From a virus, in the IMG/VR virus record IMGVR_UViG_3300025853_009406, positions 32,001-96,000 of that record: DNA of 64,000 nucleotides; one strand, given 5' to 3'. The position numbers and the translations under genes are program-made. The notes under the pieces are model-generated. The model did no database searches. It was given only the letters and a program-made list of their open reading frames with translations, and had not been told where the DNA came from. Shown piece after piece: positions 27,360 to 32,411 of this stretch; within the stretch, counting starts at the first letter, position 1, and each line of letters opens with the position of its first letter.

Positions 27360-27510
27360 GTAGGTCTTTTCATGCACGCCACTTGCTCTTTAGAGAAGCA
27401 AGAAACTCATATTAGGGTCATATGACTCCACCACACATTTTTGAGAGAAATGAGAAACTCCAGGGGTCAATGACCATCCCGACCAGGATTTTTATAGACT
27501 CTCCATGTCT
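27360..27510 (-). ncRNA. manA/wcaG-like structured RNA (tandem pseudoknot-like units ending UGGYG)
   Basis: Units GAGUUUCUCAUUUCUCUCAAAAAUGUGUGGUG and GAGUUUCUUGCUUCUCUAAAGAGCAAGUGGCG; lies upstream of the isomerase and gmd genes, the context reported for these cyanophage motifs. Confidence 0.65.
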
Positions 27511-27800: not shown

Positions 27801-27874
27801 TGCAGGTTAAGGGAATTGAACCCTTCTTAGCCGCTTTATGAGAACGGAGCATTCAACCAGATTGCTAAACCTGC
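27801..27874 (-). tRNA. tRNA with CAU anticodon (probably Ile2; elongator Met not excluded)
   Basis: Cloverleaf GCAGGTT...CCGTT-CTCATAA-AGCGG...GGTTCAATTCC...AACCTGC-A; no encoded CCA. Confidence 0.88.
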
Positions 27875-29932: not shown

Positions 29933-30005
29933 TGGAGAATAGCGGACTCGAACCGCTGACAGCCTGCTTGCAAAGCAGATACTCTACCAACTGAGCTAAT
30001 TCCCC
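29933..30005 (-). tRNA. tRNA-Ala(UGC)
   Basis: Full cloverleaf, TGC anticodon, G3:U70 pair. Confidence 0.97.
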
Positions 30006-30033: not shown

Positions 30034-30062
30034 TACTGAATGTAAGGAACCAAAAGGTTCAG

Positions 30063-30133
30063 AGCGAAATACGGGATTCGAACCCGTGACACCAACTTGG
30101 AAGGATGGGATGTTACCACTACACCAATTTCGC
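30063..30133 (-). tRNA. tRNA-Gly(UCC)
   Basis: GCGAAAT acceptor stem, CTTCCAA loop, GGTTCGAATCC, U discriminator. Confidence 0.95.
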
Positions 30134-30200: not shown

Positions 30201-30229
30201 ATATTACACCAGTTCTTGGATATTGTCAA
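30201..30229 (-). promoter_or_regulatory. sigma70-type promoter
   Basis: TTGACA-N17-TAATAT; the -35 box overlaps the HNH stop codon. Confidence 0.65.
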
Positions 30230-30696
30230 GTCCAAAGGTTATGGTCATATTCCCAGTGGCAATTTGGACATAATGGCATTATGTTTTCCTTTGAGTTTAT
30301 AACACTAATCATAACTTCTTCACTAAAAGAAGATATTGGTTTTATGTGAGCAATTTCTATATGTTTATTATATCCACATTTAACACATTCGGTAAATCCA
30401 AGTTTTTTTCCAAATGCTCTTGCTCGTGTTCTTACCAAAGCAAATGCTGAGGACTTGTGATGTTTTTCATATATTGCTTCTTTAAGGGTCATATCTTTTA
30501 CTTCTCTATCTTTTAACCATATCAAATAGTGTTCTTTACAACGAGCACGATTTGCTGTTATTGCTTTTCCACAATCAATACATTTATGCTCTGGTTTTCT
30601 TTTAGGAACTTTTTTATTATTATAAGAAGCAGCACAACTTCTTCCACAAAATTTTGGATTTTTTGTTTCTACTTTACAAAACAAGCACTTATTCAT
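30226..30696 (-). CDS. free-standing HNH endonuclease with N-terminal Zn fingers
   Basis: CVKCG...EIAHIK...NIMPLCPNCH; CLFC...FCGRSC and CIDC motifs. Confidence 0.88.
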   Translation of the reverse strand: MNKCLFCKVETKNPKFCGRSCAASYNNKKVPKRKPEHKCIDCGKAITANRARCKEHYLIWLKDREVKDMTLKEAIYEKHHKSSAFALVRTRARAFGKKLGFTECVKCGYNKHIEIAHIKPISSFSEEVMISVINSKENIMPLCPNCHWEYDHNLWT

Positions 30697-30700
30697 AATG

Positions 30701-30739
30701 GAACCTTAAAGTTATTTTTATTTATAAACCTTAAGGTTC
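30701..30739 (-). promoter_or_regulatory. 13-bp hairpin with late promoter TATAAATA in its loop
   Basis: GAACCUUAAGGUU-UAUAAAUAAAAAU-AACUUUAAGGUUC, ending 4 nt before the HNH AUG. Confidence 0.85.
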
Positions 30740-30745
30740 AAAAAA

Positions 30746-31028
30746 CGTCTCAGGAGGGACTCGAACCCCCGACCAACTGCTTAGCTTACCACTACGGATT
30801 TCCCCGCCATTTCTGTTTGTGGTCTGGACTTTCTCTTTACCATATCCTAAAAGGACTTAGGCACTTCCCGTCAAGTCTCTACACCTTCATCTTACGATGC
30901 TTGGCTCGGGATTATCATAGTCTTAAGACTTTAGAGTTCCCCGAATTTGAGAAGTTACATTTATAAAGTTTCCCTTATAAAGCTCCTTTGTTAAAGGCAG
31001 ATGCTCTTTCCAACTGAGCTACTGAGAC
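30746..31028 (-). tRNA. tRNA-Arg(UCU), split by an intron (exons 31028-30994 and 30784-30746)
   Basis: Joined exons give GTCTCAG...TCTGC-CTTCTAA-GCAGT...GGTTCGAGTCC...CTGAGAC-G. Confidence 0.92.
30785..30993 (-). ncRNA. group I intron (IC3-like), 209 nt, no ORF
   Basis: Exon ends in U, intron ends in G. Core elements CUCAAAUUCGGGGAAC, AAUCCCGAGCCAAGC, GAAGGUGUAGAGACUUGACGG, AAAGAGAAAGUCC; P2 GAAA tetraloop. Confidence 0.93.
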
Positions 31029-31114
31029 AAGAGACCTCCCTGTTTGTGCATCGTTGAGAGGCATGGGAGGGGTGAGACTTATACGAAGTGTGGACCTTCG
31101 CTGCTCATAAGACA

Positions 31115-31143
31115 ATCATACCAGTTAAAGATTTGATTGTCAA
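31115..31143 (-). promoter_or_regulatory. sigma70-type promoter for the tRNA cluster
   Basis: TTGACA-N17-TATGAT with an extended -10 TG. Confidence 0.8.
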
Positions 31144-31210
31144 GTGTTTTGAGGTCTTACTGGATTTATGAAGTGGCCAGTTTCTACACTAGTTAAAACC
31201 TCATTTTTAT

Positions 31211-31396
31211 TTATTCATCGCCCAAAACAAGATATGTCATTTCTTCTTGATCTGGAGGAATATTGATCCATTCATCAAACTCTTCTGCAATCGCTACTGC
31301 GTCAAACTGAGATTCAATATCACCTTCTGCAAGGTCATGGATTCTATTGATTGACCATTCACGAATAAGTTTTACTGGTTCAATCGTCTTTTCCAT
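31211..31396 (-). CDS. hypothetical protein (61 aa)
   Basis: Start reassigned to MEKTIEP; the longer called ORF overlaps a pseudogene in another frame. Confidence 0.6.
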   Translation of the reverse strand: MEKTIEPVKLIREWSINRIHDLAEGDIESQFDAVAIAEEFDEWINIPPDQEEMTYLVLGDE

Positions 31397-31622
31397 AATA
31401 ATCTTTTCTGAAGTATCTGCTGAGGATGTTACTATTGTAGTATGCTGGTTCTCCTGTGTCAAGGGATTCGGTGAGGACGTTGTTCTGGAAGAGTTGTTTT
31501 GTTTCTTCAAAGTTTGTTTTGCCTTTTGTTTTGTGGAGGGAGAGGATAGTCCGTCTGAATATCCCCTTGCCATATTTTTCCACATCTTCTTTAAGTTCTG
31601 GGCAAGATCCATAATAGTTTTT
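31380..31622 (-). pseudogene. C-terminal fragment of a disrupted GIY-YIG endonuclease gene
   Basis: KNYYGSCPELKEDVEKYGKGIFRRTILSL...YYNSNILSRYF; in-frame stop just upstream. Confidence 0.8.
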
Positions 31623-31661
31623 ATAGGTGTTATCATCTTAAGATATTTATGGAATAAAGTC

Positions 31662-31706
31662 AAGAATATTTTCAGTATAAATATTTTTATGGTAGAAAAT
31701 ATTTTT
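31662..31706 (+). promoter_or_regulatory. hairpin with late promoter TATAAATA in its loop
   Basis: AAGAAUAUUUUC (31662-73) pairs with GAAAAUAUUUUU (31695-706); TATAAATA at 31676-83; stem abuts ATG 31707. Confidence 0.7.
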
Positions 31707-32411
31707 ATGACTTGGAAGTATAACAGTGAAGATTTTATAGAGTCCCCAAAGGGGATAGAAGGATTTGTTTATCTAATAACAAACTTAACCAATGATAGAA
31801 AATATATTGGAAAGAAATCTTTTTGGACAAGAAGAAAAGATAAAAAAACTGGTAGAAGAAAAACAAAAGAAAGTGATTGGAAAAATTATTTTGGTTCCTG
31901 CGATGAACTAAATGAAGATGTAAAACTTCTTGGTAAAGATATTTTTTTGAGGGAAATTCTTTATTTGTGCCCTCACAAAAAATCAATGTCTTACTATGAA
32001 ACCATGGAACAATTCAAAAGAGATGTTCTAATGACTGATGATTATTATAACACAAATATTGAAGGAAGATTTTTTGTTAGTGAAAGATCTGGAATATATG
32101 AAGTTGTTATGAAAAATGATAAGTTTTGTGATATGAGAAGTGAGAAAATGAAAGACAAATCATATAACCCAATGTATAAACCAGAAGTTCGTGAAAAATT
32201 TAGTAAGATGTATTCGGGTGAAGGGAATCCAATGTATGGAAGAAAACTCACAGAAGAACATAAAAAAACACTTACTACATCAAGAAATGTTAGAGTAAGT
32301 GATGGAGAAAATGTTTGGGAAAGTGTTACTTCATATATGAAAGATAAAAAAATTGGGTTTAAAAAATATAAAGCACAATTACAAGAGGGATTAATTTTTA
32401 TCGTTAACTAA
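31707..32411 (+). CDS. GIY-YIG (Seg-like) homing endonuclease with a NUMOD3 motif
   Basis: GFVYLITN...YIGKK, YFGS, YYNTN, GEGNPMYGRKLTEEHKK; the only clear plus-strand gene. Confidence 0.9.
   Translation: MTWKYNSEDFIESPKGIEGFVYLITNLTNDRKYIGKKSFWTRRKDKKTGRRKTKESDWKNYFGSCDELNEDVKLLGKDIFLREILYLCPHKKSMSYYETMEQFKRDVLMTDDYYNTNIEGRFFVSERSGIYEVVMKNDKFCDMRSEKMKDKSYNPMYKPEVREKFSKMYSGEGNPMYGRKLTEEHKKTLTTSRNVRVSDGENVWESVTSYMKDKKIGFKKYKAQLQEGLIFIVN

Follow-up and report, generated by a model that had tools for sequence, protein, structure and literature searches.

What kind of element splits a transfer RNA (tRNA) gene of a virus after the first letter of its anticodon, and does it travel alone or in company? 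This question is raised by positions 31028 to 30746 (minus strand) of a 64-kb segment, hereafter "the window", of an IMG/VR virus record that comprises 116,740 bases and is estimated to be 61% complete. We are confident that this locus is a phage tRNA-Arg(UCU) gene which is divided between U34 and C35 by a group I ribozyme devoid of an open reading frame (ORF). Judging by its sequence, the source of the window is an uncultured cyanomyovirus, because its nrdA/nrdB/primase region is ~77% identical to that of the T4-like Synechococcus phages S-B43, S-H68 and S-SRM01, and because 337 of the 358 phage records that match the 24 kb around the intron locus are named Synechococcus phage or Cyanophage. 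Both the virus record and these T4-like cyanophage genes agree with the initial annotation of the locus, made from the sequence letters, in which a phage had been named as the host of the intron.

The split gene is composed of three parts, all on the minus strand. Exon 1 (30994-31028; 35 nucleotides, nt) contains the 5' strand of the acceptor stem, the D arm, the 5' strand of the anticodon stem, and C32, U33 and U34. It is followed by the ORF-less group I intron (30785-30993; 209 nt) with its terminal G at 30785, which is supported by the Rfam family RF00028, by ARAGORN with introns allowed, by covariation and by its relatives. Exon 2 (30746-30784; 39 nt) contributes C35, U36, A37 and A38, the 3' strand of the anticodon stem, a 5-nt variable loop, the T arm, the 3' strand of the acceptor stem and the discriminator G, while CCA is not encoded. 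A default ARAGORN run did not call the split gene; with introns allowed, the program returned tRNA-Arg(tct) with a 209-nt intron between gcctt and ctaag, i.e., with exactly the borders that had been proposed initially, so that strand, coordinates and insertion site were placed correctly. The product spliced in silico is likewise called tRNA-Arg(tct) and folds into a cloverleaf with a 7-nt anticodon loop and a UCU anticodon. In its D loop, AGUUGGAAA, G18 G19 are followed by an A, and exon 2 begins with C35; A20 and C35, the arginine identity elements known from work on E. coli, are both present in the spliced tRNA.

The borders of the intron are unable to slide, because neither its first base matches that at the start of exon 2 nor its last base that at the end of exon 1; the terminal G is placed at 30785 by both the family alignment and the intronless alleles. 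The 3' end of the Rfam match (30803) was considered as a splice site and rejected, as the remaining 3' exon makes no tRNA. An uninterrupted version of the same tRNA, annotated as tRNA-Arg, is present in Synechococcus phage S-SZBM1 (98.8% identical to the exons; 68.5 bits with the Rfam tRNA model), and S-SRM01 is a second cultured cyanophage with an intronless tRNA-Arg(UCU). The uninterrupted allele is the common one, since at least 120 IMG/VR contigs contain the 28 bases across the exon-exon joint exactly as they stand in S-SZBM1. In the window, which has a G+C content of 36.1%, AGA accounts for 255 of 529 arginine codons (48%) in a crude six-frame count of open stretches of at least 250 codons; thus, the spliced tRNA would read the main arginine codon of the phage.

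The intron itself is a genuine, intact group I intron with a complete and covarying fold. The Rfam search that had been suggested for it identified RF00028 at 31004-30803 (minus strand) with 66.5 bits (gathering score 50; E 1.2e-14 over the 64-kb window); the alignment spans model positions 1-253 and ends 18 nt before the true 3' end of the intron, so that the 3' tail falls outside it. Next to the 5' splice site lies an internal guide, AGGAG (30983-30987, minus strand), of which GAG pairs with C32 U33 U34 to form P1 and AG pairs with C35 U36 to form P10. P1 hence consists of exon CUU (30996-30994) with intron GAG (30985-30983), and U34 (30994) wobbles with a G (30985) at the splice site. P2 (30960-30981, minus strand) has 9 base pairs (bp) and a GAAA tetraloop. 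P3, ACUUCUC/GGGAAGU (30955-30949 with 30869-30863; 30863-30955 in total, minus strand), encloses P4, P5/P5a, P6/P6a with a GUAA loop on P6a, and the 5' strand of P7 (30877-30873). P8 (30861-30840) and the 3' strand of P7 (30831-30827) follow at 30827-30861 (minus strand), with P7 reading GACUU/AAGUC. The 3' domain (30788-30823, minus strand) is a P9.0-like helix, ACCAC/GUGGU, around the GAAA-loop hairpins P9a and P9b. The elements recognised in the initial annotation, namely the CUU/GAG P1, the GAAA loop on P2, the sequences of P3 and P7, and the terminal G, are all found in this fold.

Evidence for the fold comes from an alignment of 38 introns, comprising that of the window and 37 relatives from viral contigs (20 Leu(UAA), 1 Ile(UAU), 16 Arg(UCU)), each with 10 + 8 exon bases; the loci L012, L014, L018, L038, L064, L081, L112 and L120, as well as bacterial introns, were left out. 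Across the 61 proposed pairs, 92.8% of 2187 cells are paired, compared with 76.3% in shuffled alignments (standard deviation 0.5; none of 500 as high) and 29-46% with slid partners; hence, the fold exceeds chance. The structure was written from the window sequence, itself one of the rows counted, which favours it against the slid versions and leaves the compensatory counts unaffected. In 39 of the 61 pairs, both sides change across the 38 introns. P1 is invariant (38, 38 and 37 cells), the wobble is U-G in 37 of 37 cells, and the terminal G before the 3' splice site does not vary. P4, P6 and P7 are each 100% paired, the last pair of P7 being U-A in 23 rows and A-U in 14; P8 is 92-100% paired. 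Changes on both sides affect 8 of 9 pairs of P2, while compensatory pairs number 6 of 7 in P3 and 4 of 4 in P9b; P5 switches from CC/GG to UC/GA among the relatives. The tail helix is 98.9% paired with both-side changes at 3 of its 5 pairs, and P5a is an insertion that only 4 of 38 rows possess. The conserved P3-P8 core with its P3/P7 pseudoknot is borne out by this covariation.

With its 209 nt, the intron is close to the 205 nt of the Azoarcus tRNA-Ile(CAU) intron, the smallest known self-splicing example, and the remark in the initial annotation on its near-minimal size was fair. Some of its relatives are shorter by mapping, down to 189 nt. The tRNA-Leu(UAA) introns of the IMG/VR loci L076, L073 and L085 measure 189-193 nt by mapping, which is below the Azoarcus value. 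The very small size of these introns (189-219 nt) is of interest to work on minimal ribozymes.

Across the same 38 rows, the guide follows the anticodon. Where the guide faces anticodon position 35, 20 rows (Leu, Ile) show a U-A pair and 17 (Arg) a G-C pair, with a single row unpaired; at the next guide position, 19 rows have U-A, 5 have A-U, and the remaining 14, all of them Arg, are unpaired. By eye, Gln(UUG) and Ile(UAU) guides fit their anticodons, too. As the guide tracks anticodon base 35, one or two substitutions suffice to fit the ribozyme to another U34 tRNA with C32 U33 U34, and this covariation of guide and anticodon constitutes a natural series of ribozyme retargeting.

How widespread are such introns? 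The core pattern of the window intron matched at least 119 viral-contig stretches. After remapping of their splice sites, at least 24 of these proved to be phage tRNA-Leu(UAA) genes interrupted behind U34, of which many lie within phage tRNA clusters; other matches lie in Arg(CCU) at position 5, in an fMet-like CAU tRNA at position 2 and in Ile(UAU), and, from their sequences, Gln(UUG) and Lys(UUU) tRNAs are probably also among the hosts. Raw ARAGORN intron calls elsewhere were often mislabelled SeC, Phe, Ser or Ala, with the junction 1-4 nt off. Remapping relied on U(-1)/terminal-G candidates together with the conserved tail, and left 11 of 48 stretches unassigned under the tail rule; the mappings of L014, L018, L064, L081 and L112 are doubtful, and the tree was built without L014. 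By filtering the matches to a junction pattern for the intron core, we obtained 33 IMG/VR loci in which tRNA-Arg(UCU) is interrupted at this very site; they contain 16 distinct Arg introns of 197-219 nt besides that of the window (17 in total), residing in several tRNA-Arg bodies that still fold.

The arrangement is also present in at least three bacterial genomes, apparently in chromosomal tRNA genes: in Vibrio floridensis (intron of 280 nt), in Enterovibrio nigricans (256 nt, with CCA encoded and a tRNA-Leu adjoining) and in Fibrisoma limi (597 nt). A tRNA-Arg(UCU) intron at position 3 therefore exists in bacteria, being found in Fibrisoma limi and in the Vibrionaceae. The 15-base junction pattern returned 117 further loci, out of 120 listed from bacterial genomes, that lack an intron core and were discarded as chance matches, so that no frequency is derivable from them. 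For comparison with cyanobacteria, 30 intron loci were fetched, from which 23 distinct tRNA-Leu(UAA) and 5 tRNA-Asn(GUU) introns were mapped. All 23 tRNA-Leu introns share the junction, with ..GGACTT before the intron, ..G at its end and AAAATCC after it, and a ..GAG guide is present in the listed starts. The tRNA-Asn(GUU) introns (L374, L380, L383, L385 and L386) are 302-nt group I introns inserted after U35 and ~47% identical to that of the window.

Sequence identity grades these relatives. The closest intron is L126, from a syntenic cyanophage contig with a different tRNA body (91.8%); the common 202-nt phage Arg type follows with 89-91%, and L158 with 84%. Altogether, the window intron is 84-92% identical to 14 distinct phage tRNA-Arg introns, with L124 as the fifteenth clade member at 77%. 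Its nearest non-Arg relatives are phage tRNA-Leu introns, the best of which reach 75-77%, followed by the L030-type Arg intron (71%) and the bacterial Arg introns (60-67%). The cyanobacterial Leu introns are 56-62% identical over ~205 aligned positions. Two Arg(CCU) position-5 introns from the viral-contig scan fall into the same broad clade with 62-64%.

In a maximum-likelihood (ML) tree of 76 rows and 210 columns, rooted on a distant outgroup, with unsettled bootstrap values and flagged long branches, the window belongs to a starred clade of 16 phage Arg introns (96/85) inside a 45-row "phage" group without a star (87/94), and the cyanobacterial Leu introns form their own clade (99/99). Together, the window intron and the Leu introns are grouped against the cyanobacterial tRNA-Asn introns at 100/100. 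The two Vibrionaceae tRNA-Arg(UCU) introns branch near the base, and the L030-type Arg intron pairs with a Leu intron (99/92), apart from the window's clade. The ML tree would suggest that tRNA-Arg(UCU) was colonised independently more than once; we dropped this conclusion because approximately unbiased (AU) tests failed to reject monophyly, both of the phage Arg(UCU) introns (p 0.227) and of the Arg(UCU) introns as a whole (p 0.224).

By sequence, we classify the intron as one of the tRNA-Leu(UAA) type, considering that it shares with the 23 cyanobacterial introns the site after U34, the CUU/GAG P1, the helix plan and 56-62% identity. The initial annotation had recognised this type and had further proposed that a Leu intron moved to tRNA-Arg. 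The first part holds; the move from Leu to Arg is not established, because the tree is unrooted there, the Vibrionaceae Arg introns are basal and the AU test allows a single Arg clade (p 0.22-0.23). Likewise, the phylogeny with trnL introns that had been suggested confirms a common family, whose nearest non-Arg members are phage Leu introns and not those of cyanobacteria.

Compared with its counterparts, the window intron thus combines familiar and distinct traits. With the cyanobacterial tRNA-Leu(UAA) intron it has in common the insertion after U34, the CUU/GAG P1 with its U-G wobble, the P1-P9 plan and the lack of an ORF. In contrast to that intron, its host gene is a tRNA-Arg(UCU) in a phage, its guide reads C35 U36 instead of A35 A36, and its length is 209 nt as against 212-304 nt in the cyanobacterial sample; moreover, its tail, ..UAGUGGUAAG, forms a helix with ACCAC, whereas the cyanobacterial introns end in ..GGGAGAAUG. 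With the phage tRNA-Leu(UAA) introns of IMG/VR and GenBank LR756501, which are 189-216 nt long (one of 258 nt) and often lie in tRNA clusters, it shares the 3' tail; the guide is UUGAG there and AGGAG here, and the window's subclade has the additional P5a hairpin. The Azoarcus tRNA-Ile(CAU) and Agrobacterium tRNA-Arg(CCU) introns ("Ile2.5Ug" and "Arg.5Ug"; Williams 2020) are compact ORF-less tRNA introns of the same class, but are inserted 3' of the anticodon (position 5) and in a different isoacceptor. Williams (2020) lists four classical bacterial types, Leu.3Ug, Arg.5Ug, fMet.2Ug and Ile2.5Ug, all of subclass IC3, and raises the number of bacterial tRNA intron types to 21. The IC3 label for the window intron is taken from the same work by homology.

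The window intron belongs to a widespread set of phage tRNA introns that is apparently undescribed in the literature. According to a 2014 review, all phage introns then known resided in protein-coding genes, and Devoto et al. (2019; PMC6784885) stated that phage tRNA introns were previously unreported and called their own enigmatic. Our literature search retrieved no description of a group I intron in a phage tRNA gene; in PMC7162821, the word "intron" does not occur. With 33 IMG/VR loci for tRNA-Arg(UCU) and at least 24 for tRNA-Leu(UAA), such introns are common in uncultured phages. Among cultured phages, none with this intron was detected by blastn of the precursor. One unannotated tRNA-Leu(UAA) gene with a 205-nt intron was noticed at ~1443-1733 of the 735-kb genome of an uncultured phage (L003; GenBank LR756501), using ARAGORN with introns and inspection by eye. 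RF00028 gave no match to this intron, neither at the gathering score nor at E 0.01; hence, the Rfam model misses some compact introns of the family. Given that tRNA finders overlook split genes (default ARAGORN here, Rfam on LR756501), phage tRNA inventories, and codon-usage arguments built on them, are incomplete.

Does the intron travel alone? Starting 50 nt after the tRNA, and unmentioned in the initial annotation, lies a free-standing HNH endonuclease gene of 156 amino acids (aa; 30226-30696, minus strand), which matches Pfam PF13391 HNH_2 (34.1 bits, cutoff 21) as well as several PHROG HNH endonuclease families. Between tRNA and HNH gene there is a 13-bp hairpin (30701-30739, minus strand; -14.7 kcal/mol, z -3.5), the loop of which holds UAUAAAUA and the 3' arm of which covers the AAGG ribosome-binding site before the AUG; its sequence is kept in related loci. 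The sequence TATAAATA is the T4-type late-promoter consensus. The layout resembles the translational control of T4 homing endonucleases (PMC2988022). There, hairpins that cover the ribosome-binding site, combined with a late promoter that lets late transcripts escape, are given for I-TevI, I-TevII, I-TevIII, SegB and MobE. SegB is a GIY-YIG enzyme encoded between tRNA-Arg and tRNA-Ile, and it likewise stands beside a phage tRNA-Arg and has a hairpin at the ribosome-binding site and a late-promoter-like box; it differs in its nuclease family and in the lack of an intron.

Within the window's intron clade, 22 of 27 IMG/VR loci possess an HNH gene of 85-92% identity which begins 46-51 nt after the tRNA (3 are cut by contig ends), and 2 of the 27 retain a 35-aa remnant. 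The comparison set consists of 120 intronless loci of the same tRNA among the matches listed, 107 of which have at least 520 nt downstream; an HNH homolog occurs nowhere in any of these 107 loci. Viewed from the nuclease, 21 of the 25 loci with an HNH gene of at least 85% identity and with upstream sequence available follow an intron-bearing tRNA-Arg(UCU), and the intron-HNH unit was found in 9 upstream and 12 downstream sequence contexts. Cultured cyanophages yielded no HNH homolog at E 1e-8 or better; the best cultured match, in Erwinia phage Ep030 (50% identity), lies inside an intron-free cluster of 20 tRNA genes. From these sequence comparisons, we regard the HNH family as one of free-standing, homing-type genes associated with tRNA genes, most of all with tRNA-Arg(UCU), and as coupled to the intron in the window's lineage. 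We further lean, on the strength of this co-occurrence, towards the view that intron and HNH gene travel as a two-part selfish unit by collaborative homing.

A precedent is the psbA intron of cyanophage S-PM2 and its neighbour F-CphI (Zeng, Bonocora and Shub 2009, as summarised in PMC6083498): F-CphI cuts psbA where the intron is lacking, and the intron protects the gene from this enzyme. The two systems agree in a T4-like cyanophage, an ORF-less group I intron in a conserved gene, an adjoining free-standing endonuclease and their co-occurrence. They differ in that the interrupted gene is a tRNA gene here and a protein gene there, and that the nuclease is of the HNH type here and of the Endo VII type there.

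Splicing and, as the second part, collaborative homing at the tRNA locus could proceed as follows. The precursor would probably be transcribed from the promoter-like site near 31143-31115. In the transcript, the AGGAG guide would pair with C32 U33 U34 (P1 with the U34-G wobble) and with C35 U36 (P10); free guanosine would attack after U34, the terminal G (30785) would then dock, and the exons would be joined to a normal 74-nt tRNA reading AGA. The HNH nuclease would cut intronless tRNA-Arg(UCU) genes of co-infecting phages, and repair would copy in the tRNA with intron and HNH gene, the intron breaking the nuclease's own target. Taken together with the guide series, this leads to a comprehensive proposal that we put forward tentatively: that a large, undescribed family of phage tRNA introns switches its target among tRNAs with U34 (Leu, Arg, Ile, Gln, Lys) through one or two guide changes, and that the cyanophage tRNA-Arg(UCU) intron is the immunity half of a pair whose HNH half cuts the uninterrupted tRNA gene of rivals. 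If true, the pair would be the first case of collaborative homing in an RNA gene. The intron-HNH pair provides a tractable test of how ORF-less introns are mobilised.

Several observations weigh against these readings, some concerning the nuclease and others the splicing. As to the nuclease, 3 of the 27 sister loci have the intron without an HNH gene. Two of the 25 loci with a closely related HNH gene (92-93% identical) follow an intronless tRNA-Arg(UCU) of another sequence type, with the anticodon stem AUUCU/AGAAU, and 8 of 22 loci with a more distant HNH gene (36-71% identity in the set, 55-69% in these eight) follow intronless tRNA-Arg(UCU) with other anticodon stems; the intron is therefore not needed for the co-existence of nuclease and tRNA in general. 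Among the remaining distant loci, 3 follow tRNA-Ile(GAU), 10 have no tRNA directly upstream and 1 has a spurious tRNA call. No HNH homolog was found near the L030- and L124-type Arg introns (6 loci) or near the 3 bacterial Arg introns. The link may also reflect shared descent, as most linked loci are close kin with introns ~90% alike. The exceptions would suit an explanation which we consider possible, yet less probable than the paired unit: a real ribozyme that is inherited vertically, or moved by ordinary recombination in a hyperplastic tRNA region, beside an independent selfish HNH gene with another target, comparable to T4 SegB, whose target is an intergenic region between tRNA genes. In its favour are the 10 HNH loci after intronless tRNA-Arg(UCU), the 3 after tRNA-Ile(GAU), the Erwinia phage cluster and the Arg introns without an HNH gene nearby; it is harder to reconcile with one and the same tRNA body having the HNH gene in 22 of 27 loci (plus 2 remnants) where the intron is present and in none of the 107 listed where it is absent, with the spacing fixed at 46-51 nt, and with the psbA/F-CphI precedent, which has the same layout (PMC6083498).

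As to the splicing, 20 public sequencing runs hold the stretch or part of it, 6 of them RNA libraries, mostly from freshwater or other aquatic sources; three RNA runs and one DNA run were inspected, all as contigs. The metatranscriptome contigs of the runs X13 (depth 32; 30884-31400) and X16 (depth 33; 30870-31400) are unspliced and show no difference from the window, and the phage-specific exon-exon joint was not seen in the contigs of these four runs. Both contigs cover leader and exon 1 as well as the first half of the intron and end in the most conserved core, which we read as assembly breaks; stretches without coverage carry no information. The HNH region has a depth of 0-4 in the same RNA runs, and depth in the DNA run is even, at ~22, over unique parts; such uneven RNA coverage hints weakly at the presence, as RNA, of the leader, the first exon and the 5' half of the intron, and does not demonstrate splicing. 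Forms joined at 30784 were considered as spliced product and rejected: they occur in the DNA run, too, and have another D arm, and are thus intronless tRNA-Arg genes of other organisms. A "skip" joint in X16 (30774 to 31000, with 16 other letters between) belongs to another tRNA.

The unspliced contigs would fit a dead tRNA, with an intron that splices poorly or not at all and a host that supplies tRNA-Arg(UCU). Two loci of the HNH set, L414 and L415, could illustrate such an outcome: ~130 nt before the HNH gene stands a tRNA-Arg-like gene that resembles L124 in its body and has a ~46-nt coreless insert at the U34 site, the first base of the 3' exon seemingly missing, which may be a decayed intron or a dead tRNA. 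For the window, we regard this as very improbable, because 17 Arg introns and 21 relatives retain the core helices, with compensatory changes, together with the U-G wobble and the terminal G, because the exon cloverleaf is preserved in at least three sequence types, and because AGA is the phage's main arginine codon. A different doubt concerns the route by which the site was reached. Reverse splicing into an RNA with the CUU context, then reverse transcription and recombination, could have brought the intron into tRNA-Arg(UCU), free of any nuclease and more than once. In favour of this, introns with fitting guides occupy the position behind U34 in the CUU loops of Leu(UAA), Arg(UCU) and Ile(UAU) tRNAs, and probably of Gln(UUG) and Lys(UUU) tRNAs as well, and the ML tree joins the L030-type Arg intron to a Leu intron (99/92) away from the window's clade. 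We nevertheless hold this route to be unlikely, given that the AU test allows a single Arg clade (p 0.227 for phage, 0.224 for all) and that no reverse transcriptase is known at the locus. The paired unit of intron and HNH gene remains the reading we prefer for the mobility of this locus.

The region upstream of the split gene contains further elements. A sigma-70-like promoter (31115-31143, minus strand) consisting of TTGACA, a 17-nt spacer and the extended -10 box TG-TATGAT (11 of 12 consensus matches) is situated ~80-90 nt before the tRNA. The consensus is all that identifies it, and related loci have comparable TTGAC and TAnnAT boxes in the corresponding position. Downstream of it, a leader hairpin (31034-31070, minus strand) corresponds to the Rfam "abiF RNA" motif RF03085 (53.8 bits, threshold 37) and ends 5 nt before tRNA position 1. 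The 15-base core of this motif lies upstream in 12 of the 27 intron-bearing loci, with 4 more being one mismatch off (by eye); among the intronless loci listed for this tRNA, it is limited to 4 of 118. The motif also precedes the intronless tRNA-Arg(UCU) of S-SRM01 (L002 1531-1567). It may, hence, be a leader element of the tRNA-Arg/HNH cassette rather than one tied to abiF.

Beyond the cassette, a gene of the GIY-YIG homing type with a SegE-like domain (127.5 bits) and NUMOD3 (31347-32411, plus strand) is located just upstream of the tRNA-Arg on the opposite strand. Downstream of the tRNA-Arg, on the same strand, there are uninterrupted genes for tRNA-Gly(UCC) (30062-30133), tRNA-Ala(UGC) (29933-30005) and tRNA-Met(CAU) (27801-27874). 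A wcaG RNA motif is present in the window at 27368-27462 (minus strand; 53.9 bits, threshold 42), and a stronger one, with 95.2 bits, lies near the tRNA-Arg of S-SZBM1 (L001 4381-4479).

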